A stretch of 32,000 nt of DNA from Euryarchaeota archaeon UBA186 (GTDB taxonomy: Archaea > Thermoplasmatota > UBA186), in assembly GCA_002494765.1 (NCBI GenBank), contig DACJ01000105.1:4157-36156 (forward strand), written 5' to 3'. A model generated the notes under the pieces. That model was not told the origin of the DNA. It was given only the letters and a program-made list of their open reading frames with translations, and searched no databases. A program made the translations under genes and the position numbers. Of this stretch, positions 10,796-31,942 are shown in pieces. The first letter of the stretch is position 1. Every line of letters begins with the position of its first letter.

Positions 10796-12499
10796 ATGCC
10801 CATGAAGACTAGGAAAGGGGATGAGAGTAGGAGGAAAGAATTGCAGACCTTAAAGGGATTCCCATCAACTTCGCAGGATAATTACCAGCTAAACATGGTC
10901 AATATCATCAGGCACGCGGTAAGATGTTTCGCCAAGCAGGAGATCGTCTCCAGAAAGCCAGATGGAATATTCCGCTATACCTACCAAGATGCTTATGAAA
11001 GGATAAAGAAACTCGCCAACGCTTTAGAAGGGCTGGGAGTAAAAATCGGCGATCGTATAGGAGTACTCGAATGGAATACGTACAGATATTATGAAATGGA
11101 CTTTGGCATTCCGGGCACTGGAGCTGTACTCCTCCAATTGAACCTGAGACTTCCTCCCCCAACTATAAGCTACGTCGTAAATCACGCCGAGGCCAAATTC
11201 ATATTTGTAGACGAATCGTTGATACCTGTCGCTGAGGCAATCGCTCCCCTATGCAAGATTAAAGGTTATATCATACTTACCGACAAAGATCTAAGCGAGA
11301 TGAAGACAAAGCTGAGCCCCGTTTACAGCTATGAAGAGCTGCTGAAAGAAGCGGAGCCAGAGTACGAATGGCCAAACCTCGATGAGACCTCCACCTATGC
11401 CGCCTGCTATACCACTGGGACGACTGGCGACCCCAAAGGGGTCTACTATTCCCATCGAAACGTCTATCTTCATTCCATGGCAATCGCTCTGTCCACGGAA
11501 CTGTCGTATAGGGACTGCTTCCTGCAGATGGTCCCGATGTTCCACGCCATGGGTTGGGGCACTCCTCAGGCCGCCACTCTCGCCGGGGCAAAACTCCTTC
11601 TCCCAGGAAGGTATGCGGCAGAGGATTTGGGCTCGATCGTGGAGTTGATGGCAAAGGAGAAGGTAACGGTTGGAGATGGGGCACCAGCCATTTTCCTGCC
11701 TATGCTCAGGTACATAGAAAAAATGGAGAAGAAACCCAACTTGAAGGGCGCGCGTTTAATTTCTGGTGCCACTGAACCACCGATAGCCATGATGAAGGGT
11801 TTCCATGATTTGACCGGGGCCGAGATCGTCCATGCTTATGGCGCGACTGAAACCACTCCACTTGTCACCATAAACAGGTTGAAGCCCTGGCTTGAGGATA
11901 AGTTGTCGGAAGAGGAGAAGTGGGATCTGAGGAGAAAGCAGGGCTATACCGTCCAAGGCTTGGACATCAAAATCATCGATGACCAGGGTGAATAGCTTCC
12001 CCATGATGGCGAATCAGTAGGGGAAGTAGCCATTAAGGGTCCGTGGATTGCTGGTCAATATTACAATGCTCCCGAGACCGAAAACCAATTTACCGAAGAT
12101 GGTTACTGGAGAAGCGGCGACGCTGGAACCATAGATCCCGAGGGATACATGAAGATAACCGACAGGGTTAAGGATCTGATTAAGAGCGGTGGCGAGTGGA
12201 TCTCTTCAGTAGACATGGAGAATGAGATGATCTCTCATCCGTCGGTGTTAGAGGCCGCCGTCGTAGGGGTTAATCATCCAAAATGGGAGGAGAGACCATT
12301 AGCCCTGGTAACCTTAAGAGGAGAACAGAAGGGCAAAGTGAACAAGGAGGACATATTAGAGCACATCAGTAAAAAGTTCGCCAAATGGCAACTTCCTGAC
12401 GAGGTAAAATTTGTCGATTCGATCCCCAAAACCAGCGTTGGCAAGATCGATAAAAAGGCGATAAGGGAACAGTATAAAGACATCTATAGGAAGAAATGA
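10796..12499 (+). CDS. Medium/long-chain acyl-CoA synthetase (ANL superfamily), single gene interrupted by one in-frame TAG at 11993-11995 (pseudogene or recoded)
   Basis: Track ORFs 10703..11995 and 12149..12499 are in the same frame, and 11996..12148 is open in that frame (LPHDGESVGEVAIKGPWIAGQYYNAPETENQFTEDGYWRSGDAGTIDPEGY). Motifs LKGFPSTS, YTTGTTGDPKGV, YGATE, GEVAIKGP, SGGEWISS, PKTSVGKIDK. The start is probably ATG 10796 or 10802. Confidence 0.85.
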
Positions 12500-14139
12500 T
12501 TTTAGCATCGCAAGAAATTAAAGAATGGACGGAAAAGGGGATTTGGGGAGAGAAAACCCTCATTGATTACTTCAAGGAACAAGCCGCTAAACACCCTGAC
12601 AAAGTGTGTCTGGTGGACCCCCCAAATAAAAAAGATCTGGTAGGATTGGAACAGGAGAGGCTAACATACGATTAGCTGAATAGGGCGGTTGATGCCACGG
12701 CTGAGGGTTTAATCGAGATGGGGGTTAAAAAGGATGACATCGTCATGGTCCAGCTTCCCAACTGCTGGGAACTGGCGATGCTCTATCTTGCAATTGCCAG
12801 GGCAGGTGCCATTATCTCTCCTTTGCCGGTGCAGTGGAGAGCATCAGAGCTGGAGTATATCGCGGAGTTGACCGAAGCTAAGGTATTTATTACGGTAGAA
12901 GAGTTTCACGGTTTTAAGCATAAGAAGATGGGGGAAGAACTCTTGAAGCACCCTAACTTGGAACGTGTCATCATCCTACAAGAGATCAGGGAGATGAGCA
13001 AGGGAATGAGCAAACTCGAGAGGATCGATGGGGCCAACGATATTTTTACCCTAAACTGGACTTCCGGTACAGAGGCCCAACCCAAGGGATGCCCAGCAAG
13101 TCATAACAATTGGATCGTCCAGGCTTCTCTCCAGATAGAATCCGTGGGGATAGAACCGGGGGATAACTTCCTCACTGCGGGACCATTGGTCAATATGGCT
13201 TCTGTCGGAACGGTATACATCCAATGGCTGATGGTAGGCGGTAAACTCGTTTTACACCACCCATTTAACGCTGAGATATTGTTCAAGCAGCTGATAGAGG
13301 AGAAGATCAACTACACCCTTCTCGTACCGGCGGTGGTGAACATGCTCCTAAAACACCCAAAAGTGGATGAATTCGACCTTAGCAGTGTGAGGGCTATCAC
13401 CATAGGTTCTGCACCCCCCTCACTCTGGTCCGCTCAGGAGCTCAAAAGACGTTGGGGGATAGAGTTTGGCAATATATGGGGGCAAAACGAATCAACAGCC
13501 ATTATCTCTGGGCCTTTCGATGTACCGGATATGGAAAAAAGGATCGATCATTTCCCTCAATTCGGAAAGCAGGGTATAAAATGGGCATCCGCGACGTCTC
13601 AATTCATTCAAACAAAGCTAATAGATCCCGCTACCGGAAAAGAGGTAACCGAGGTCGGTAGCGTTGGGGAACTGTATTACAAAGGGCCAAATGTAATTCC
13701 TTGTTATTTTAAGAGACCGGGTCTAACGGAAAAATCGTTCGATAAAGGGTTTCTTAGGACAGGTGACCTTTTTCAGATAAAAGAGGGGCACTATATCGGT
13801 TTTTTTGATAGATGTAAAGACATTATTATCCGCGGCGGTTTTAACATCAGCGCTCAGGAGATAGAAAATATGCTCTTGGGGCATCCAAAGGTAATGGATG
13901 TAGCAGCGATCGCCATGCCTGATGAGATCATGGGAGAAAGGACTTGTGTTTATGTGGTTCCTAGGAGAGAAGTCGAACTGGAAGATCTAACATCATTCAT
14001 GAAAGAAAAAGAGATAGCGACCTACAAGCTTCCAGAGCAACTGGTGATAATTGATGCTATTCCAAGAAATCCCTTCGGAAAAGTCCTTAAAGGAAAACTC
14101 AGGGAAGACATAAAGAAAAAATTAAAGACTACTAACTAG
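12496..14139 (+). CDS. Second AMP-dependent acyl-CoA ligase paralogue (AliA/EntE-like), interrupted by one in-frame TAG at 12673-12675 (pseudogene or recoded)
   Basis: ATG 12496 overlaps the TGA of the preceding gene (ATGA). 12496..12672 reads MILASQEIKEWTEKGIWGEKTLIDYFKEQAAKHPDKVCLVDPPNKKDLVGLEQERLTYD, then TAG, then LNRAVDATAEGLIEMGVKKDDIV.., continuous with track ORF 12718..14139. Motifs WTSGTEAQPKG, GELYYKGPN, FLRTGD, IIRGGFNIS, PRNPFGKVLK. Confidence 0.85.
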
Positions 14140-17030: not shown

Positions 17031-17765
17031 ATGATTGGGATAGAGGAAAATATCTCAAACTGGATATTGAAAAAAGTTGAAGACGCAGGGGCTAGGGGGG
17101 CAATTCTTGGACTGAGCGGTGGTCTAGATTCAGCAGTGACCGCTCTCCTTTGCAAGAGAACGGTACCGACCCTTGCTCTTATAATGGACTGCGCTTCTGC
17201 CAAAGAAGACATCGATCTAGCTCTTGAGATAGCTAGAAGTTATGAGATCCCCCATAAGCTCATAAAATTGGATGAAGTGCTCAGAGCTCTTCTTCTTGCC
17301 ATACATACCACAGATGTTGACAAAGAGACCCTTGGCAACGTAAAGGCGAGGCTCAGGATGATAACCCTATACTTTCATGCGAACCAATTCAACTACCTGG
17401 TCGTCGGCACGGGGAACAAGAGCGAGCTCTCCGTCGGATATTTCACAAAGTACGGGGATGGTGGGGTGGACATCTTGCCCCTGGGCGATCTCTACAAAAC
17501 TGAGGTAGGGGAGATAGCTAGACGGATGCTCTTGTCCAGAGAGGTCATTGAGCGCAAACCCTCTGCAGGGCTATGGGAGGGGCAGACGGATGAGGGAGAG
17601 ATTGGCATGAGCTACGAGGAGTTGGACTCAATCCTTATAGGTATGCCGCTAAAGGGGAAGATAGAGGAAAACAAGGTCAGAAAAATTGCGGAGATGACCC
17701 GAATAAGCGAGCACAAAAGGGCTAAGATACCGATATTCAAGGTAAAGAGGCCTTTACCCGACTAG
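17031..17765 (+). CDS. nadE: NH3-dependent NAD+ synthetase
   Basis: PP-loop SGGLDS, GTGNKSELSVGYFTKYGDGG and SEHKR. Stop TAG. Confidence 0.9.
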   Translation: MIGIEENISNWILKKVEDAGARGAILGLSGGLDSAVTALLCKRTVPTLALIMDCASAKEDIDLALEIARSYEIPHKLIKLDEVLRALLLAIHTTDVDKETLGNVKARLRMITLYFHANQFNYLVVGTGNKSELSVGYFTKYGDGGVDILPLGDLYKTEVGEIARRMLLSREVIERKPSAGLWEGQTDEGEIGMSYEELDSILIGMPLKGKIEENKVRKIAEMTRISEHKRAKIPIFKVKRPLPD

Positions 17766-18781: not shown

Positions 18782-20062
18782 CTAAACAAACCGATCAGGA
18801 AATCTGGGAAATGAGGCACAGGTCCTGTAGTAGTTAGCGGTTGGGCGATTTCCGTTGTGGGCATCCGCCAATTTTAGAAGGGATTCTGCCTTGATCTGGA
18901 GCGCGGCTTCGCTTCCCGGATGATTCAGCAGCACCATCTCGGAGAGTTCAAGCGCGATTCGATTTTTACCGCCATCCAGAGCTTGACGGGCGTGATCCAG
19001 AACCTTATCGACAGATCCTGTCAAGTTGATGATCTCCTCACCCAGCTCTTTCCTTGAGGGAGGATTCAGATTGACGGGATTGCCGTCGAACCATCCGACG
19101 TAATGAGTATAAATGGCTCTGATGCAGTATGGAATGTACCCATAAATCTGTCTGAGATAGGGTTCTTCCATATAATCTGGCAGTTCTAGACCATCTAGAA
19201 CCTCGTCGATAGGCCTGAACTCCCGTACCGCTTCCATAGCTTTGCCATGAACGTATAGTATGGCCTTCTTGTAGCTGGTCAGAGCTCTTGTGATTTCCTC
19301 ATTACCGCTCAAAGTTGGACCATGACCTGGGACAAGATACTTCGGCTTCAATGCTAAGATCCTGTCCTGGGCAGATGCCCAATCCAGCACAGGTCTTGGG
19401 GATGTACCCCTAATGGTGTAGAGGTTGGGGAAAAACCGGTAGAAATTATCGCCTGAGCATACCACATCGTACTGGGGTACGTGCACCATGATATGATCGG
19501 GCGTTTCTCCAGGGGCGTGCATCAGGTTGAAGGTTATTCCCCCAAGGATAAATGAGTAGCGGTCATCGAAGGTTTGGGTGGGCCCGACGATTTCAGTCAG
19601 ATCTAGATCCTCCCACCTCAACCCAACGGAGAAGTCGGGATCGCAGATCATCACGGGCAACCTTTCCTCCTCGGGAAGAAGGATCCCAAACATTGCCGCC
19701 GATCTTGCCCTTCCGCTCAGGCCCAACGATTCCTGAAGGTCCATCTCTTTTTTGAAATCCTCATGCGCTATTACCGTCACCTCATCTTCTTTCGTTGCTC
19801 CGTCCTCGAAAATTGCTCTAGTGCCCTGGTAATGGTCCTGATGGTTGTGGGTGTAGATCACGTATTTAACGGGTTTATCCGAAACCTCGCGAAAATCTTT
19901 CAGGATTTCTCGAGCGGCCTCGATGCTCTCAGTGGTGTCGATGATGACTGATCCTTCCGGAGTTATGACCATGGTCATGTTCGCCAGAGCATAGCCAACA
20001 CCCGCATAGACGTTATCAGTTACCTTTACCATCTTCCCTTTTTTAACGCTCGATTTTGTCAT
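18782..20062 (-). CDS. Alkyl/aryl-sulfatase-like metallo-beta-lactamase hydrolase (SdsA1/Bds1 type, MBL + dimerisation domain, no SCP2 tail)
   Basis: MBL motif THNHQDHYQG plus GETPDHIMVHVP, NLYTIRG and YVGWFDGNPVNL, followed by an alkyl-sulfatase dimerisation-like helical domain. Confidence 0.7.
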   Translation of the reverse strand: MTKSSVKKGKMVKVTDNVYAGVGYALANMTMVITPEGSVIIDTTESIEAAREILKDFREVSDKPVKYVIYTHNHQDHYQGTRAIFEDGATKEDEVTVIAHEDFKKEMDLQESLGLSGRARSAAMFGILLPEEERLPVMICDPDFSVGLRWEDLDLTEIVGPTQTFDDRYSFILGGITFNLMHAPGETPDHIMVHVPQYDVVCSGDNFYRFFPNLYTIRGTSPRPVLDWASAQDRILALKPKYLVPGHGPTLSGNEEITRALTSYKKAILYVHGKAMEAVREFRPIDEVLDGLELPDYMEEPYLRQIYGYIPYCIRAIYTHYVGWFDGNPVNLNPPSRKELGEEIINLTGSVDKVLDHARQALDGGKNRIALELSEMVLLNHPGSEAALQIKAESLLKLADAHNGNRPTANYYRTCASFPRFPDRFV

Positions 20063-25043: not shown

Positions 25044-25121
25044 CAGATGAATTTTTCAGAATTACTCCCGTGGCTAAACAAAATGGAAAACTTTAATAGA
25101 ATCCATTAAATAGGAGTGATC

Positions 25122-26306
25122 ATGAGAAAAGAATTCGTTCTTTTGTCAGCCTTTACCCTCCTAGCACTTCCATTGGGGGGAGGCCTGGTTACAGCTAGCA
25201 ATGAGAAATTGAATAGGGAATGGACCGTTGCAATGTACATCGATTCAGACAACAACATTGATTACTGGGGTTTTATCTATCTCGTAGAACACGCGATAGC
25301 TGAGCTAGTTCCCTCGCCAGAGGTGACCACCGTCATCTACTTTGATGCTCTCTCTCCAAAAGGGGTTCTGAAGATCATATACGATAAGGGCCTACCAGAC
25401 ATATCATACGAGAAAGAGAAGAACTTTGGGGACAGCGAGCTGCTGGCTCAGTTCGGAGTTGAGACCTTTACCAAGTATCCAGCTGAGAAGTACCTGCTCC
25501 TTATAATGAATCACGGTAGAGGATGGGGAGGAATCTGCGTAGATGATACTGATAATGGCGATGTGATATACACTCCAGAACTAGCCGATGCCTTATCGAA
25601 GATATCCTGTGCAATAGGAAGGCCGATAGACGTTTTGCAGTTTGATGCTTGTGCGATGGGCAACGTTGAGGTCATATATGAAGTAGCTCCATACGTGAAC
25701 TACTACATAGCCTCGCCAGAGGTCGTGTCCATGGGGACGCTAGTCTACCTGATCGACACCCTGCTCCTCGGATTGAAACCCCAAATATCGCCAGAGGAAT
25801 ATGCCAAATCAGTGGTCAGGACGAGTGGACAGTGGCTGACCGGAGGTTACCTTGTGGCCTACGACACGAGCGGGATAGACACACTAACACAATCCCTGGA
25901 TGAGCTAGCGGTTGCTCTTGGTACTGAAGAGTACAGGGAAGAGGTACTTGAGGCCTATACAAATACGAAGAAGTACTCCCCGGTCCTAGCGATCGAAGAG
26001 CATGACATACCGGTGTTCGTGGATATATACGACCTCGCCTCGGAGATTGAGAGCGGGATCTCAGACCCGGAGGTAAAGGAGCTCTGTAAAGAAGTGATAG
26101 AGAGGGTAGACGGGCTGATCATACTGAAATCGCTTTCTCCCTCTAGTGAGGCTGTTATCGGAAACGGGCTAAGTGGCACACTTATGCACTACGATGAAAC
26201 AATTCCAGATTGGGCGCACAAGGGCTTGCTCGATCAGTACTCGGTTCTCAAGTTCGCACAGGATACGGCCTGGGATGACCTGCTAGCGGAGGTGCTCTAC
26301 CTCTAA
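25122..26306 (+). CDS. Secreted clostripain-like cysteine peptidase (family C11)
   Basis: Signal peptide (FVLLSAFTLLALPLGGGLVTA) and WTVAMYIDSDNN. Catalytic His context LLIMNHGRGWGG; catalytic Cys context LQFDACAMG. Start placed at ATG 25122, with TAGGAG 5 nt upstream; the track GTG start is 25116. Confidence 0.75.
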   Translation: MRKEFVLLSAFTLLALPLGGGLVTASNEKLNREWTVAMYIDSDNNIDYWGFIYLVEHAIAELVPSPEVTTVIYFDALSPKGVLKIIYDKGLPDISYEKEKNFGDSELLAQFGVETFTKYPAEKYLLLIMNHGRGWGGICVDDTDNGDVIYTPELADALSKISCAIGRPIDVLQFDACAMGNVEVIYEVAPYVNYYIASPEVVSMGTLVYLIDTLLLGLKPQISPEEYAKSVVRTSGQWLTGGYLVAYDTSGIDTLTQSLDELAVALGTEEYREEVLEAYTNTKKYSPVLAIEEHDIPVFVDIYDLASEIESGISDPEVKELCKEVIERVDGLIILKSLSPSSEAVIGNGLSGTLMHYDETIPDWAHKGLLDQYSVLKFAQDTAWDDLLAEVLYL

Positions 26307-27169
26307 TTTTCCCCATCTTTTTTATTTTTTAATTTTTCGAACTCTTTTTCAGGTATGTTATAACAATGCTCTGGCCCGGGGAATTTTTCTGTCTTTACGT
26401 CTTTTTTATATCTGGTGAAAACTTTCACCATCTCCTCCCCCAGCTCCGCATACCTCTTCACGAATTTCGGTTTAAACAGCTCAAAGAGCCCCAGTATATC
26501 GTGAACGATCAGTAACTGACCATCGCATTCAGAGCCCGCGCCTATAGAATAGATCGGTATGCTCGCCTCTTTAACTATGATCCCCGCTACTTTCGCCGGC
26601 ACCGCCTCTAACAAGATGGCAAATGCTCCAGCATCTTCCAATATTCTAGCATCGTCGATAAGTCGGCGAGCCGTCTCCGCGTCCCGCCCCTGGCTCTTAT
26701 ACCCTCCTAACTGAGCGGCGAACTGGGGGGTCATACCGATGTGCCCGATGACGGGAATGCCGGCCTTAACTATAGCCAAAACCCTATCCGCCATTTGAGC
26801 CCCGCCCTCCAGCTTTATGGCATCTACACCACATTCAGCCATGAACCTGCCAGCATTGTAGATCGCTTCCTCGCTGGTGGCCTGATAGGACATATAGGGC
26901 ATATCGCCCACGACAAAGGCGTACTTGACGGCCCGGGTTACGGCCTGGGTCATCCAGACCATCTGATCCATGGTCGCTGGAAGGGTGGTTTTTTGGCCCA
27001 ACATCGTCATTACTCCCGAGTCGCCGACCAGAATCATCTCGATGCCAGCTCTATCCTCATAGAGAGCTGTTGGATAGTCATACGCCGTTAACCAGGAGAT
27101 CTTCTCGCCCTCCTCCTTCTTCCTGTACAGGTAGGGGATTGTTATCTTCTTTCGCTCTTCTTCCGACAT
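26303..27169 (-). CDS. panB: 3-methyl-2-oxobutanoate hydroxymethyltransferase (ketopantoate hydroxymethyltransferase)
   Basis: Motifs LTAYDYPTA, ILVGDS, GDMPYMSYQ and AIKLEGG. Stop TAG overlaps the TAA of the convergent C11 gene (CTAA). Confidence 0.9.
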   Translation of the reverse strand: MSEEERKKITIPYLYRKKEEGEKISWLTAYDYPTALYEDRAGIEMILVGDSGVMTMLGQKTTLPATMDQMVWMTQAVTRAVKYAFVVGDMPYMSYQATSEEAIYNAGRFMAECGVDAIKLEGGAQMADRVLAIVKAGIPVIGHIGMTPQFAAQLGGYKSQGRDAETARRLIDDARILEDAGAFAILLEAVPAKVAGIIVKEASIPIYSIGAGSECDGQLLIVHDILGLFELFKPKFVKRYAELGEEMVKVFTRYKKDVKTEKFPGPEHCYNIPEKEFEKLKNKKDGEN

Positions 27170-27237: not shown

Positions 27238-27299
27238 TTAACCTTATGAGCAATTCATCTACGCCCTAAAGGGCGGAGATTTCTTGCTCATAAGGTTAA
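27238..27299. repeat. 62-nt nested palindrome/hairpin (16-bp perfect outer arms, 4-bp and 5-bp inner helices, TAAA loop)
   Basis: TTAACCTTATGAGCAA-ttc-ATCT-a-CGCCC-taaa-GGGCG-g-AGAT-ttc-TTGCTCATAAGGTTAA. Lies between the panB ATG (27169, minus) and the cyclase start (27319/27334, plus). Confidence 0.8.
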
Positions 27300-27318: not shown

Positions 27319-27894
27319 GTGAGGAGGAAGAACATGACCATATTCTTCATTGATATCAGGGGTTTTACCACTATCAGCGAAAAGGTAGAGCCCGAGGAAC
27401 TTTTGGACATGTTAAACAACTACTTTTCCGAGGTCACCAAGATAATATTTGACTACGGCGGAACCGTGGGGAAGTTTATGGGAGATGGGATCATGGGTTT
27501 CTTTGGGGATCCCGAGGAATGTCCTGATCATGCTCAAAAGGCGGTAACGATGGCATTAGAGATACAAAAGAGAATAAATAAATTGAATGGGGAAGGTTTT
27601 TTCTGGGGTGAGTTCCCACTTTCCGTTGGGATTGGGATAAACACCGGCTATGTTACTGTGGGATCCATCGGTCCAGAGAATCACCAGGACTATACTGTAA
27701 TCGGAAGGCATGTGAATCTGGCCGCACGCTTAGAAAGCACTGCAAAGCCAGGGCAGATATTGATAAGTCAAAGAACCTATAAACAGGTCAAGAATACAAT
27801 TGAGGCAGAGAAGATTGGAGAGATCGAGGAGATCGGAGAGATAGCTGTGAAGGGATTTGAAAAGCCGGTGAAAGTATATAATGTGGTATACTAG
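27319..27894 (+). CDS. Minimal class III nucleotidyl cyclase (cyclase-homology domain only, ~190 aa)
   Basis: Metal Asp residues in FFIDIRGFT and KFMGDGIMG. Substrate-position residues are Lys52 and Thr126. Transition-state Asn133 and Arg137 lie in HVNLAARLES. No sensor or regulatory domain. An ATG at 27334 preceded by GGTGAGGAGG is a possible alternative start. Stop TAG. Confidence 0.85.
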   Translation: MRRKNMTIFFIDIRGFTTISEKVEPEELLDMLNNYFSEVTKIIFDYGGTVGKFMGDGIMGFFGDPEECPDHAQKAVTMALEIQKRINKLNGEGFFWGEFPLSVGIGINTGYVTVGSIGPENHQDYTVIGRHVNLAARLESTAKPGQILISQRTYKQVKNTIEAEKIGEIEEIGEIAVKGFEKPVKVYNVVY

Positions 27895-27929
27895 GTTCCC
27901 GATTAAAATAAAGGAGATATATCGAAAAA

Positions 27930-28673
27930 ATGGAGATAAAGGTTCTTGGCTGCCGTGAGACTACCAGCTTTTTACTAAATGAGTCTCTCCTTTTAGATGC
28001 GGGATATGTCATCGATGTGCTAAAGATTGAGGAGCAGGATAAAATTAAACATATTTTACTTACTCACTCCCACCTCGACCATATTCGGGATATCCCTATG
28101 TTAATAGATAACACTATAGAAGGTAGGTCCGACCCCATAAACCTTATTGGCACTGAGAGAACACTTACCCAAATTAGGTCCCATTTGTTCAATGATAGCA
28201 TTTGGCCAGATCTTGTCAGGCTTAGCGGTAAGAATTTCTCTTTTTTGAGGTTTAAATCCATAAAGTCTGGCAGGGATTTTTCCCTTAATGAGTTAACCAT
28301 CAGGGCTATCGAGGTCAGCCACACTGTAGAAACCGTGGGCTACTTTATTACGGATAATAACGCCTCAATTTTGTATATCGGTGATACTGGACCGACTGAA
28401 AAGATATGGAGGGAAGCAAATAAGTTTCAGGAATTAAAAGCTATTTTTATTGAAACAGCTTTTCCCAATCGGCTACTAGATTTTGCTAACAATAGCGGCC
28501 ATTTAGTCCCTCTAACTTTAAAGAGCGAACTGCAGAAATTAAATGACTCCCATATCCCTATTTTTATCTTTCATTTGAAGCCACGCTATTCAGAAACGAT
28601 AAAAGAGGAGATAGAGGCAATTGGGAACACAAATATCACTATTTTGCAATCGGAAGACAGTTTTGAGTTTTAA
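27930..28673 (+). CDS. Metallo-beta-lactamase-fold phosphodiesterase resembling class II 3',5'-cyclic-nucleotide phosphodiesterases (CpdP/PDE1 type)
   Basis: LLTHSHLDHIRDIP nearly matches the class II PDE signature HxHLDH[LIVM]. Also IWPDL, EVSHTV, YIGDTGPT, ETAFPN and GHL. Starts 36 nt after the cyclase stop. Confidence 0.7.
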   Translation: MEIKVLGCRETTSFLLNESLLLDAGYVIDVLKIEEQDKIKHILLTHSHLDHIRDIPMLIDNTIEGRSDPINLIGTERTLTQIRSHLFNDSIWPDLVRLSGKNFSFLRFKSIKSGRDFSLNELTIRAIEVSHTVETVGYFITDNNASILYIGDTGPTEKIWREANKFQELKAIFIETAFPNRLLDFANNSGHLVPLTLKSELQKLNDSHIPIFIFHLKPRYSETIKEEIEAIGNTNITILQSEDSFEF

Positions 28674-28887
28674 CTTAACCTAACTTTGGCAAACAGTAGA
28701 ATACCTACAAAAAGCACTTCAAAAGCCGTCTTTGACAGTTTCAACAACTCATTGCAGGCGACCGCATTAGCTTGTTTGATTGATCTGGGTTTAGCGGCTA
28801 AGTTGCGCAGTTCAATAGTTAGGCTTTTCAAAGTAGTTTGGATATAAACGAGTTATGCAATGCTGTACCTAATGAAAGGATGGTAGA

Positions 28888-28959
28888 GTGAGAAGAAAAC
28901 TTGAAGTATATTTAGATACTTCCGTAATTTCGGCATCAGGTTGTTCGATCCGTACCTGA
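28888..28959 (+). pseudogene. Possible N-terminal fragment of a PIN-domain (VapC-like) toxin gene
   Basis: GTG-initiated 23 codons VRRKLEVYLDTSVISASGCSIRT*. The (K)xxVYLDTSVI start with the first acidic residue is typical of PIN-domain N-termini, and the rest of the domain is missing. Very short, so weak. Confidence 0.25.
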
Positions 28960-28978
28960 GCTGTGCGACGTACTAACA

Positions 28979-31942
28979 ATGAACAAAAAATCTACAGTTA
29001 GAACATTCCATGCTCTCGCCAAGGCAGACCTCCAAGAGGTCTATGAACAGAGTAAACAAGAAGTCCTCCGCGAGTATGGTTTCCAAATCGAATTAGGGAA
29101 AGCCAATAGCATTGAGAGTCTTGAGGCACTCGTTTTCGAGGAAGGGTCAGGGCCCGATCGGTGGACAGAGAAGGAACTCTTGGAGATCTCCAATCTATTT
29201 CGTCTCCTCAGCTCTCAAGAAAACGAGGTGCGACTCTATAAAGAATCTCAGAATGAGTTTTTCCGAAATATTCCGAGAGCGCGAGAGTTCTATATCCTTG
29301 CCCTCAATAAAGTCAACAGACCAACGGATGCCATCGAGGAGTGTAGAAAACTCATTGCTGAAGGGGGCGAGAATAGTCTCGTATGGGGAGCATTGGGAGA
29401 TGGCTACACCATCCGAATGATGAGTGTAGAACAATTTGCCCAGGCACTGGAAGAGGCGGAAGGAGATATCAACAGAGCTGATAGTAAAAGCAAGGTGCAA
29501 TTCCAGAAGCATTTTCCTGAAATTGATATGAAGACCGTAACTCTCAATCAGCTCCACAACCTGCGAAAGCTCACCTTAGAAAAAGCCAAGCAGATCTACC
29601 GCCAAGGGTTTCACAGTAATGGGGCCTCCTTCCCAGGACTCGGCTGGATAATGCGAACGATCGAACAAAGGATAGATCTGCTCGCTGAGAAGGCATGTCT
29701 CATGGACAGGCAAAGGCAAAGAGTATTGTTTGAACAGGAAGTGGCAAGCCTAAGGCAGGTAGAAGAACAGATCAGGAGGCTCGAACAGGAGATTGAAAGT
29801 CAACTGATCCTCATAAAGATTGCACTCGAAATGGAAGGGGGCATCGAGTCCCTTGACTACTGGACCCATGCCGGAGAACTCCAACTTGCCTTCAGTCAAG
29901 TCAAAAGTATAACAAAGATTCAGCCGATTCTTGCAAAGGTCTTTGCCACTGTAGACACCGAGTTTAAGCTTGTTATTACCACAAACCGCCTTGAGAGAAT
30001 CAGAAATCAGTACGTAAAGGAACTTGAGATTAAACGGACTCAAGGTGAAAAGACCGAGGAACTCAAATGTAGCCTCGAGATAATGAATGCTGTCCTTGCT
30101 GAACTCAACGCAGGGAGAAGGCGTTTCATAGCGGGAGGAAAAACGCAAGGCAAGGCACTGAATGAGCGATACAGAGTGCTCGCAGAGGCCAAACCAAAGG
30201 ATCCAGAAGGGATGTTCCTCAAGAAGACCATCAACTTCCACACACTGACCAGTAATCTCGTTCCTCAGTACATTCCGGGAGGCGTTGGCCGGACAGGGTC
30301 GCGGGTGCCCGATTTGACGATCAACAGGCATGTGCAGGAGGATATCCATAACATCGTCGAAGAGAAGGTCATCAAGGCATTAAAACTAGGAGAGCAGAAT
30401 CGACCAAAGGCCGTGATCGCATTGATTCAAAAACTCGTCGGAGAGGGGTTGAGTGTCGGAGAACTTCAGGACCTCCAATCTCCTGCTCATCACGAATTCA
30501 GTATACGCTCCGATGGGCTGATCGCCCTTTCTGGCATAGACTGGGATATGCGAAAAGGAACGCGGTCAATCACCGATCTGACGGCATCTCTACTTATGCG
30601 AACCGGGGACTGCAGAGAGACCATGTACCTGAATGGTGCCCTCTTTGCCTACTATCAACAGACGCAGGTTCATAGGAAGATGAGAGAAGCGATAGGGTGC
30701 CTGGATCACGGAGACCAGAAAAGATTCCACCGGATTACTTCAGAGGAGATTCCTGAACTCATACGCTATCAGCTCCGTGGAGGACACGTCTCAGTGTATG
30801 TGGATTCGATCAGCATGAAGGAGAAGTACCATGCCGATCGGATCTCAAGAAAAGATCCGACTGCCATGCAAAGAACATACGGCCTCGAGGAATTCCGGTC
30901 AGATCAGCCGCTGACCCAGTACGAACTCGAGAATGCCAAAATTCGAGTGACCTACAAAGATGATACAATAACCCTGGTTGAGCCAAAAGACCCCGCAATT
31001 GGAAAATGGCGTCCGATTGAATATACCCCAGTCAAGGGGGGTGGTGGAATACCCAAGATTCCAGACACAGGGCCGAATGGAGAAAATATCGCATCGATCC
31101 AACTGCTGAACTTAGTTGAAGAACATACCATGTCCTTTCTATACGATGGTAAAACAGAGAAGGTAGAGTTCTGTGATGGTTTCTACAATGAAACTTTTTT
31201 TGACAGCCCATATCAGTTTGGCTCGGGAACACTCGATACAAGCGATCTTGTTGATAATTATGGGCTTATACACACCGGAAAGAGAGAGCTGATCGGTCCG
31301 GACGGCAAAAGACATACTCGTCCAGTATTCATTGAGTTCCTCCCTTATTCAACAACAGATTACCAGTATTCGCTGGGAGAAGGAGATATACCAACCTCCT
31401 TCCAGTTAATGGGAAGGAGATTTGATGGAAGGCTTACACAAGAGCGCAGGCAACTCGAGGAAGGAGACTTCTGCATCCCTGTCTTCTTAGAGAAGGTATA
31501 TGCGTGGGAGGTGCAACAGCGGGAAGCCGTCGCAGGGCAGCCGAAGTCCATCGATCAGAAATTTACGAATGTGATGATAAAATTAGCCAGAGATCATCCA
31601 GAACTCGTCCAATTACAGGAAGTCAAGCATGAAAAGAACCTTATTAATCAGGGCCAGAAAAGCGATAGTGTCTATCTCGTCTTGAGCGGGTCTCTCCACG
31701 TGTATAAAGACGGCAAACCCCTCATGAGGGATAAAGGACCAATAACAGTTAAAACAGGTGGCATTGTGGGGGAAATTTCTGCCCTCAAAGGTGGACTTCC
31801 CACAGCGAGTGTTGCGGGAAATGCTGTTGTCCTTCGCATTTCGAAGAAAGAATTTCAGAGGCAATTAGACATCAATAGAACGTTTCGAGAGGGTGTGGAG
31901 GAACTCGCCAATACTCGATTCAAAGAACTACACTGCAAGTAA
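28979..31942 (+). CDS. 987-aa uncharacterised multidomain protein with C-terminal cyclic-nucleotide-binding domain (candidate cNMP-gated effector)
   Basis: Long uninterrupted ORF with an ATG start. By eye: aa ~95-235 helical TPR-like region; aa ~236-375 coiled coil (EQEVASLRQVEEQIRRLEQEIESQ); aa ~528-632 putative transglutaminase-like Cys545/His603/Asp626 core. aa ~862-980 is a cNMP-binding beta-barrel (NLINQGQKSDSVYLVLSGSLHVY..GGIVGEISALKGGLPTASVAGNAVVLRISKKEFQRQL). I do not recognise the overall architecture. Confidence 0.9.
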   Translation: MNKKSTVRTFHALAKADLQEVYEQSKQEVLREYGFQIELGKANSIESLEALVFEEGSGPDRWTEKELLEISNLFRLLSSQENEVRLYKESQNEFFRNIPRAREFYILALNKVNRPTDAIEECRKLIAEGGENSLVWGALGDGYTIRMMSVEQFAQALEEAEGDINRADSKSKVQFQKHFPEIDMKTVTLNQLHNLRKLTLEKAKQIYRQGFHSNGASFPGLGWIMRTIEQRIDLLAEKACLMDRQRQRVLFEQEVASLRQVEEQIRRLEQEIESQLILIKIALEMEGGIESLDYWTHAGELQLAFSQVKSITKIQPILAKVFATVDTEFKLVITTNRLERIRNQYVKELEIKRTQGEKTEELKCSLEIMNAVLAELNAGRRRFIAGGKTQGKALNERYRVLAEAKPKDPEGMFLKKTINFHTLTSNLVPQYIPGGVGRTGSRVPDLTINRHVQEDIHNIVEEKVIKALKLGEQNRPKAVIALIQKLVGEGLSVGELQDLQSPAHHEFSIRSDGLIALSGIDWDMRKGTRSITDLTASLLMRTGDCRETMYLNGALFAYYQQTQVHRKMREAIGCLDHGDQKRFHRITSEEIPELIRYQLRGGHVSVYVDSISMKEKYHADRISRKDPTAMQRTYGLEEFRSDQPLTQYELENAKIRVTYKDDTITLVEPKDPAIGKWRPIEYTPVKGGGGIPKIPDTGPNGENIASIQLLNLVEEHTMSFLYDGKTEKVEFCDGFYNETFFDSPYQFGSGTLDTSDLVDNYGLIHTGKRELIGPDGKRHTRPVFIEFLPYSTTDYQYSLGEGDIPTSFQLMGRRFDGRLTQERRQLEEGDFCIPVFLEKVYAWEVQQREAVAGQPKSIDQKFTNVMIKLARDHPELVQLQEVKHEKNLINQGQKSDSVYLVLSGSLHVYKDGKPLMRDKGPITVKTGGIVGEISALKGGLPTASVAGNAVVLRISKKEFQRQLDINRTFREGVEELANTRFKELHCK

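Follow-up and report, generated by a model that had tools for sequence, protein, structure and literature searches.

A candidate cAMP signalling cluster of mosaic origin in an archaeal contig, with a 987-residue putative output protein of uncharacterised kind

Background

The DNA analysed here (the window) is a 32,000-nucleotide (nt) stretch of contig DACJ01000105.1 from Euryarchaeota archaeon UBA186, near the right-hand end of which three plus-strand genes form a cluster. They encode a class III nucleotidyl cyclase, a predicted phosphodiesterase (PDE) of the metallo-beta-lactamase (MBL) fold, and a 987-amino-acid (aa) protein ending in a cyclic-nucleotide-binding (CNB) domain. Such a set would make, break and sense a cyclic nucleoside monophosphate (cNMP). 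The question it raises is whether it serves virus defence, as in Pycsar, which reportedly combines the cyclase PycC with a CNB-domain effector, or forms a signalling circuit of its own. With a probability of roughly 0.5, the cluster is read here as a horizontally acquired, self-contained cyclic AMP (cAMP) circuit controlling a thiol-type enzyme of uncharacterised kind. The make/break/sense logic and three of the domains are already known; new are the TPR-S scaffold joined to an unmatched Cys/His output module, a CNB domain devoid of its canonical Arg, the inclusion of a dedicated PDE, and the fact that an archaeon has recently received the set.

Cyclase and phosphodiesterase

All three plus-strand open reading frames (ORFs) that an earlier reading of this DNA, made from the sequence alone (the sequence-only reading), had placed in the cluster were present. 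The first can start from a GTG at 27319 or from the annotated ATG at 27334, which is preceded by GGAGG and is likely the true start, yielding the annotated 186-aa product P0371. Its PF00211 match (E = 3.9e-34) covers profile positions 6-179 of 183, in agreement with the proposal that the protein is a catalytic domain and nothing else. The best solved match was the Pseudomonas aeruginosa adenylate cyclase CyaB (3R5G, E = 2.9e-51), aligned over the full length. Residues D12, D56, K52, T126, N133 and R137 are present; following the class III literature, we take D12 and D56 to be metal ligands, N133 and R137 to act on the transition state, and K52 and T126 to be the substrate pair of class IIIb adenylate cyclases. 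The fold, the metal Asp pair, the Asn/Arg pair and the substrate pair of class III nucleotidyl cyclases were all found, and the protein is predicted to be an adenylate cyclase with all catalytic residues. Its nearest relatives (64-65% identity) were Chloroflexota proteins and fusions of a cyclase to a receiver domain (REC-cyclase). No PDE or CNB gene was linked to the stand-alone homologues P0399 (from a Thermoplasmata metagenome-assembled genome, MAG), P0423 and P0372.

The PDE gene starts after 35 nt from the cyclase stop. As the sequence-only reading had held, it encodes an MBL-fold enzyme with the class II cNMP-phosphodiesterase signature: PF02112 matched at 64.3 bits (cut-off 23.7), PF12706 matched as well, and the HSHLDH motif is present. 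The metal ligands H46xH48xD50H51, H131, D152, H191 and H215 are invariant between this protein and the MBL partners encoded at Dehalococcoidia loci (see below), and the best solved match was yeast PDE1 (4OJV, 9.3e-6). The enzyme is thus predicted to be a class II cNMP phosphodiesterase in which all metal ligands are kept. PDE1, YhfI, RNase Z and Apyc1 have been grouped as class II MBL enzymes (Hobbs et al. 2022, PMC9117128). Like yeast PDE1, Bacillus subtilis YhfI and phage Apyc1, the window PDE is an HxHxDH di-metal MBL protein of about 250 aa; unlike phage Apyc1, whose gene belongs to an anti-defence locus of a phage, it has its gene in a host operon, flanked by those of a cyclase and a CNB protein.

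The large protein

The third ORF (28979-31942, 987 aa) belongs to a family of 94 clusters at 90% identity, with members of about 985 aa that are conserved over the full length and 42-95% identical. They occur in Dehalococcoidia, Anaerolineae/Caldilineae, Geobacteraceae and other Desulfobacterota, and Acidobacteriota. HMMER scanning of 1.8 billion representative sequences also revealed relatives that have no CNB domain, some with other termini and some compact at about 700 aa. In one homologue the reading frame is truncated at 337 codons, where an IS3-type transposase gene in the opposite orientation interrupts it. The AlphaFold2 model of the window protein (predicted local distance difference test, pLDDT, 87.6; predicted template-modelling score, pTM, 0.88) displayed three parts: an all-helical N-terminal scaffold, a central alpha/beta domain and a C-terminal CNB fold. 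No transmembrane (TM) segment was indicated by hydropathy (maximum 1.26 per 19 aa) and no TIR domain by profile searches, so the description of the protein as neither TIR nor TM was borne out.

The first 860 or so residues had been said to match nothing nameable with confidence. This proved correct for the central domain of about 460 aa and probably incorrect for the N-terminal scaffold, in which a TPR-S domain is likely. PF20308 scored 23.4 bits in the window protein (9e-5), below its cut-off of 27.6, whereas 35 of the 41 members of the family are matched by it, the strongest at 3.6e-11; precomputed matches exist on several homologues, and MAP3K_TRAF_bd was matched in 7 shorter relatives. The region resembles the regulatory TPR scaffold of ASK1 (MAP3K5; PF20308, PF13281), but the window protein has no kinase, PH or NADase partner and carries a Cys/His domain and a CNB domain instead. 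The ligand of TPR-S is a prediction in the literature only.

The central domain gave no sequence or profile match in Pfam, NCBIfam, PADLOC or PDB, and Foldseek returned 0 matches at E<=1e-3 in PDB and BFVD, despite a domain-model pLDDT of 86.4. Across 41 sequences, with identities down to 19%, H504, G543-D544-C545-R546, E714, H716, F735-Y736, Y745 and G812 are invariant, and D733, in the motif D733-G-F735-Y736, is kept in 40 of the 41. In the model, C545 starts helix 545-576, H716 lies within strand 704-723, and D733 lies 17 residues after H716, following the next strand (729-731). This layout may be that of papain-type Cys-His-Asp/Asn enzymes, and we infer from the invariant residues that the domain is the catalytic output, possibly a thiol-dependent hydrolase or transferase. 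H603, in GGHVSVYVD, was considered as a transglutaminase-like catalytic His and rejected, as 20 of 57 members have Gln at this position.

For the C-terminal part, PF00027 matched aa 881-964 at 35.2 bits (cut-off 27.5; 1.2e-8). Foldseek with this part of the model matched HCN, MloK1, PKA-R and CAP, and the eight-stranded beta-roll with flanking helices was found. The C-terminal cyclic-nucleotide-binding beta-barrel recognised from the sequence is therefore sound as a fold, and it is the one part of the protein that PDB sequence and profile searches matched. Its phosphate-binding cassette is GEISALKGGLPTASV (aa 931-945, nt 31769-31813), and that of the family reads G-E-I-S-A-L-x-G-G-L-[P/A]-[T/S]-A-[T/S]-V. 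Relative to the canonical G-E-x-A-x(n)-R-[ST]-A, the G-E and the [TS]-A-[TS]-V are kept and the pattern breaks at the Arg, a position occupied by Pro in 36 sequences, by Ala in 20 and by Arg in none. In PKA, CAP, MloK1 and PycTIR this Arg clamps the cyclic phosphate, and its loss should greatly weaken canonical cNMP binding. Binding of a cyclic nucleotide by the domain is uncertain because this key residue is absent.

Proposed circuit

In the circuit proposed, the stand-alone cyclase would form a homodimer and make cAMP, and the PDE would hydrolyse it, setting its level and lifetime. The 987-aa protein would be receiver and output in one: the C-terminal CNB-type domain would be the nucleotide sensor and exert allosteric control over the central domain, the central domain, with its invariant Cys/His/Glu/Asp set, would provide a thiol-dependent hydrolase or transferase activity, and the N-terminal TPR-S scaffold may be the binding site for another ligand or for a partner protein. 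The nucleotide made, the binding of a ligand by the Arg-less CNB domain, and the chemistry and target of the central domain are the inferred elements of this scheme.

Genomic neighbourhoods of the family

Linkage was counted in 48 non-redundant loci of large-protein homologues whose flanks measured 2 kb or more. A class III-fold cyclase gene was located 365-2695 nt from the large gene in half of them (24/48), and an MBL gene was nearby in 11/48. The make/break/sense linkage claimed for the window is thus supported, for the family as a whole, by recurrence, with a cyclase within 2.7 kb in those 24 loci.

The linked cyclases are of several types. In Desulfobacterota, proteins of about 1,120-1,170 aa composed of a zinc ribbon (DZR), a cyclase domain, an AAA_16 (STAND) module and TPRs flank the large gene, often in tandem (Table 1); Geobacteraceae loci carry such zinc ribbon-cyclase-STAND-TPR proteins together with a 504-aa MBL protein. 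At one locus with such neighbours (L044), the large protein itself, 1045 aa in length, has gained the same N-terminal double zinc ribbon as the flanking cyclases. Another linked type is a CHASE2 membrane cyclase.

Loci of the Dehalococcoidia type encode a 264-aa protein that was missed by Pfam PF00211 and by all PADLOC PycC models. It matched the window cyclase in BLASTP at 4e-5 and in hhalign at 94.5% (E = 7.8e-8), with the alignment running through every catalytic motif, and FDLAGFT, KYLGDG and INIASRL are present; to judge by these motifs, the 264-aa proteins are a divergent minimal cyclase clade. The same loci encode an MBL protein orthologous to the window PDE, with identities of 28-33% (MAFFT) or 32-37% (tblastn, local). 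Always adjoining the divergent cyclase in these loci, and absent from the window, is an Ala/Glu-rich coiled-coil protein of 240-288 aa with one C-terminal TM helix. In one of them (L033), the genes for the divergent cyclase, the MBL protein, the coiled-coil protein and the large protein are all collinear.

Analogous sets have been assembled independently in at least four lineages, which argues for functional coupling. The synteny of the large-gene locus is stable across species in Geobacteraceae and Caldilineaceae. One close homologue (L062) has a dense cNMP-related neighbourhood upstream, with two genes for MBL proteins, one for an ion-channel-like membrane protein and one for a CNB protein of 136 aa that stands alone.

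A gene for NadE (NH3-dependent NAD synthase), normally single-copy, adjoins the large gene or lies in its vicinity in several lineages that are not related to one another (6/36 long-flank loci). It overlaps the large gene by 4 nt, including the stop codon, in a deltaproteobacterial MAG, lies divergently about 250-520 nt upstream in two others, 5-7 kb off in Dehalococcoidia loci and 11 kb upstream in the window. The TPR-S ligand is predicted to be NAD-derived, and the proximity of NadE may relate to this.

Junction and mosaic origin

Between the PDE gene and the large gene lies the expected gap of 305 nt. In blastn comparisons, homology to the cyclase-PDE cassette stopped at 28724 and homology to the large gene began at 28949-28971. 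The gap had also been said to hold a possible fragment of a PIN-toxin gene. A 23-codon ORF (28886-28957), encoding VRRKLEVYLDTSVISASGCSIRT before its stop codon, does resemble the start of a PIN/VapC protein; a Pfam profile search with this query, which at 23 aa is too short for confirmation, gave no match.

The large gene is 89-90% identical in nucleotide sequence and 84-85% in amino acid sequence to its counterparts on contigs of Dehalococcoidia type; RecA/RecX is encoded on one of these contigs, SmpB and ComEC on others. The homology begins 8-30 nt before the ATG and stops 24 nt before the stop codon. Synonymous divergence (dS) from these copies was 0.22-0.28, so the inter-domain transfer was recent. 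The ratio of nonsynonymous to synonymous divergence (dN/dS) was about 0.3 against them and dropped to 0.12 when a more distant copy was compared, values that point to purifying selection on a functional gene. Positive selection, considered on account of a nucleotide identity (89-90%) exceeding the amino acid identity (84-85%), was ruled out, a dN/dS of about 0.3 being that of ordinary purifying selection. The large gene is foreign in the bacterial contigs as well, with a G+C content (GC) of 46-47% between flanks of 39-55% and a tetranucleotide correlation with the flanks of r = 0.31-0.33, compared with 0.80 between the flanks themselves.

The cassette has a different history. A contig of a compositionally different organism is 95% identical in nucleotide sequence to window positions 27920-28724, from just before the PDE start to 50 nt past its stop, and 85% identical over the 3' half of the cyclase gene. 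The partner gene there encodes a CNB-aldehyde-dehydrogenase fusion whose binding cassette is canonical (596 aa, PRSAS) and which lies directly upstream of the truncated cyclase copy and the 95%-identical PDE in L075 and L076. This fusion appears to be a cNMP-regulated metabolic enzyme that shares the cyclase-PDE cassette of the window. Since the cassette is paired elsewhere with another gene, the window cluster is a mosaic whose junction lies in the 305-nt gap.

The notion of an accessory or acquired locus is thus strongly supported by composition, blastn breakpoints and a dS of about 0.25. The GC dip on which it had partly been based is real but milder than estimated: cyclase and PDE genes together have 40.9%, the large gene 47.5% and the remaining window 47-49%, in place of about 35-45% against 47-63%. 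The archaeal setting stands as far as the host is concerned; the gene family is bacterial (Chloroflexota, Desulfobacterota, Acidobacteriota), and the archaeal large gene is, on these comparisons, a recent bacterial import and no archaeal invention.

Three points weigh against a dedicated circuit. The trio in the window is mosaic, and a gene remnant sits at its junction; about half of the long-flank loci, several with full 10-kb flanks among them, have no cyclase within 10 kb; and the CNB domain is without its phosphate-clamping Arg throughout the family, which makes canonical high-affinity cNMP binding doubtful. They also bear on a second explanation, that the cyclase-PDE cassette and the large gene arrived separately, that nothing but recombination brought the three genes together, and that the CNB-homology domain binds no cNMP and responds to some other or an intrinsic ligand. 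The separate breakpoints and the difference in GC on either side of them would be expected in that case, as would the uneven relationship to the Dehalococcoidia loci, where the large protein is 84-85% identical, the PDE only 28-33% (MAFFT) and the cyclase of another lineage. Accidental proximity is, however, at odds with the repeated building of such sets from differing cyclase types, an MBL protein and the large protein, with the conservation of G-E and [TS]-A-[TS]-V in the cassette, and with the two CNB-less relatives examined, neither of which has a cyclase nearby. We consider this explanation rather unlikely.

Table 1. Coordinates of the cluster and of other features (L numbers designate individual loci; entries marked window refer to the 32,000-nt stretch)
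Feature	Coordinates	Strand	Basis or remark
Class III (IIIb-type) nucleotidyl cyclase, catalytic domain alone	window 27319..27894	+	PF00211 E=3.9e-34; 186-191 aa
MBL-fold class II 3',5'-cyclic-nucleotide phosphodiesterase	window 27930..28673	+	PF02112 1.4e-17; PF12706 2.8e-17; HSHLDH
305-nt junction between separately acquired pieces	window 28674..28978	+	blastn breakpoints
Large protein aa 1-395, all-helical scaffold with probable TPR-S domain at aa ~87-160	window 28979..30163	+	AlphaFold2, pLDDT mostly 85-96; PF20308
Large protein aa 396-860, conserved alpha/beta domain	window 30164..31558	+	residue invariance; domain model pLDDT 86.4
Large protein aa 861-987, linker helices and CNB fold	window 31559..31942	+	PF00027 1.2e-8; fold at aa ~877-985
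Imperfect palindrome	window 27238..27299	.	divergent PanB/cyclase intergenic region; left compositional border of cluster
Zinc ribbon-cyclase-STAND-TPR proteins	L044 9788-16388; L012 3160-9910; L007 1743-8781		
Divergent 264-aa cyclase	L003 13988-14782 (-); L033 8137-8931 (+); L026 2493-3323 (+)		
Coiled-coil tail-anchored protein	L003 14813-15634 (-); L033 7196-8062 (+); L026 1668-2390 (+)		
CNB-aldehyde-dehydrogenase fusion	L075 63-1853; L076 18-1616		596 aa; PRSAS
CNB, MBL and channel-like genes	L062 1540-4655		
IS3-cut homologue	L056 10001-11815		
NadE	L001 12973-13755; L047 4950-5762; L070 1038-1844; L003 19559-20287; L031 ~12270-12971; window 17031-17765		
PanB	window 26303-27169 (-); L003 5308-6159; L031 5-781		
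Clostripain-family (C11) peptidase	window 25116-26306	+	
MBL/alkyl-sulfatase-type protein	window 18782-20062	-	
ORF past the window end	L024 4741-4814 (window ~32011 onward)	+	AAGGAG

Comparison with Pycsar and other known systems

The sequence-only reading had also raised Pycsar-like defence as one option. In such a threshold-controlled abortive-infection or virus-defence module, infection would make the cyclase raise a cNMP, the PDE would set the activation threshold or reset the system, and the large CNB protein would act as a new toxic effector. Where cyclase-STAND-TPR proteins are its neighbours, in Desulfobacterota, they would serve as invader sensors. The general layout is similar to that of Pycsar in that a class III-fold cyclase gene lies near a gene for a CNB-fused protein, in the window in the order cyclase, PDE, CNB protein on one strand. 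The PADLOC models of PycC match the window cyclase at 6.5e-27, but this is what any class III cyclase would give. Bona fide adenylate cyclases are by far its nearest kin, the protein being of the canonical CyaB-like type with the K/T pair, and no PycC structure was among the 60 PDB matches listed for it.

With regard to the effector, the CNB domain of the family is closest to PycTIR among solved structures (8JSK/8JSJ; 7.1e-9 for 8JSK, compared with 1e-5 for PKA-R), and TPR-S was reportedly described from conflict systems, both of which would suit a defence role. The CNB domain is nevertheless fused to TPR-S and a domain of about 460 aa instead of TIR or TM, no other known killing domain was found, the PADLOC matches are confined to the CNB domain, and the cassette Arg is missing. 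A dedicated PDE is a further difference from Pycsar. This PDE carries a precomputed match to PF23023 (Anti-Pycsar_Apyc1). Host Apyc1-like homologues might regulate cNMP signalling, and a part in the regulation of Pycsar has been left possible (Hobbs et al. 2022, PMC9117128).

The patchy phyletic spread, the foreign composition of the gene in every host examined, the toxin-antitoxin genes or remnants nearby, the copy cut by an insertion sequence (IS) element and the STAND-TPR cyclases adjacent to the large gene in Desulfobacterota are compatible with defence. On the other hand, no defence-island enrichment was detected among 139 neighbouring genes from 22 loci, of which about 2 were real defence genes, and in two bacterial families the gene order around the locus is kept from species to species. 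Only 1 of about 60 loci (L070) lies on a predicted viral contig (IMG/VR), and there NadE, UvdE and a sensor kinase adjoin the large gene, with phage-like genes more than 6 kb off.

Membership in Pycsar thus breaks down at the type of effector and at the genomic context, and it is doubtful as regards the cyclase product, which in Pycsar is cCMP or cUMP. In another organism the cyclase-PDE cassette (95% nucleotide identity) pairs with a CNB-aldehyde-dehydrogenase fusion, a pattern of cNMP-regulated enzymes; this, the lack of a defence-island signal and the stable synteny favour a signalling cassette over a defence module. The defence framing is accordingly weak and the module unlikely; the other possibility raised from the sequence, a self-contained cAMP circuit with an enzymatic output, fits better, given the adenylate-cyclase type and the missing defence-island signal. 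A bolder variant would make the TPR-S and Cys/His module (about 850 aa) a new enzymatic effector fold, the output, gated by a non-canonical CNB domain, of an undescribed PDE-buffered cAMP conflict (abortive-infection) system with cyclase-STAND-TPR sensors in Desulfobacterota, spread by horizontal transfer between phyla and into archaea; this is rather unlikely.

Among known systems, CNB-fused enzymes such as the mycobacterial protein acetyltransferase Pat (4ORF/4OLL/4ONU) are the closest functional analogues, and Pycsar is more distant. Pat, Epac and the L075 fusion likewise join a CNB sensor and an output in one polypeptide, and the L075 fusion is accompanied by the same cyclase-PDE cassette as the window protein. 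The window protein differs from these enzymes in its uncharacterised output domain and extra TPR-S scaffold, and from the L075 fusion in its non-canonical binding cassette. The cyclic oligoadenylate (cOA) signalling of type III CRISPR systems with ring nucleases follows the same logic of a synthase, a degrading enzyme and a nucleotide-sensing effector. This is an analogy only, as the protein families and the messenger are unrelated and no CRISPR components are present in the window cluster.

According to a 2023 review (PMC10249747), archaea had no characterised protein making, degrading or binding 3',5'-cAMP, and the cluster, though a bacterial import, offers a compact candidate archaeal cAMP gene set. 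Its central domain of about 460 aa is confidently modelled, sequence searches and Foldseek gave no relative of it, and its chemistry would add a new cyclic-nucleotide output. The family-wide loss of the Arg alongside tight cyclase coupling is a natural experiment in CNB ligand recognition. The locus further illustrates how second-messenger modules are built by recombination, with a mobile cyclase-PDE cassette accompanying different CNB-fused enzymes, and documents a recent transfer from a bacterium to an archaeon (dS about 0.25).

Host assignment and borders of the cluster

The small subunit of replication factor C (RFC) encoded in the window has its best named matches in Thermoplasmata (about 65%), and ribosomal protein L40e, RtcB and TtuA are also encoded there. 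An archaeal host is supported by the RFC small subunit and L40e. When tetranucleotide composition was compared with that of the remaining window, the correlation was r = 0.72 for the cluster and 0.59-0.64 for its parts, against 0.81-0.90 for every host chunk.

The composition switches exactly at a palindrome, and the hairpin proposed at the left border was confirmed: 30-nt arms at 27238-27267 and 27270-27299, separated by a 2-nt spacer and 87% complementary, fold as DNA at -23.6 kcal/mol (z = -8.95), and the element occurs once in the window. Its perfectly matching arms measure 16 nt only. Logan contigs of two runs end at 27274 or start at 27271/27273, at the palindrome centre, overlapping by only 4 nt, and the assemblies of both runs break again 84 nt downstream of the window end (~32084). 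The two breakpoints delimit a 4.8-kb segment corresponding to the cluster, and the palindrome core is CGCCCTAAAGGGCG. These breaks suggest a recombination site, or an island that occurs in more than one context, and they also fit low coverage at the hairpin.

Such breaks, together with the composition change at the palindrome, are what an assembly chimera would produce if the cluster came from a bacterium of the same community and had been joined wrongly to the archaeal flank. The deposited 51.6-kb contig, however, crosses the junction without Ns, and both parts are found at 100% identity in both runs. The palindrome is imperfect, hence natural and no fold-back artefact, and its perfect arms are shorter than usual assembly k-mers. 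Furthermore, the large gene is equally foreign in bacterial contigs, so that a change of composition at its borders is what a mobile gene should show. A chimera is therefore very improbable.

At the right-hand side, the cluster was correctly said to run to within 60 nt of the window end, the distance being 58 nt. Downstream sequence was covered for 84 nt by an overlapping public contig (L024), in which a plus-strand ORF with the ribosome-binding site AAGGAG starts about 11 nt past the window end, its product beginning with MESIRLLWRSARLSATSIRTS. An Rfam search gave no match within the cluster. A scan for promoter and terminator consensus sequences, which were of bacterial type although the host is archaeal, found fewer sites than in shuffled sequences.

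A gene for PanB (ketopantoate hydroxymethyltransferase) lies upstream of the large gene in both the window and the Dehalococcoidia contigs, with 54% identity between the archaeal and Dehalococcoidia proteins; this shared neighbour could be a coincidence or a trace of a larger common context. Two further genes of the archaeal flank, not related to the cluster, code for a protein of the MBL/alkyl-sulfatase type and for a C11 (clostripain-family) peptidase that apparently bears a signal sequence (Table 1).

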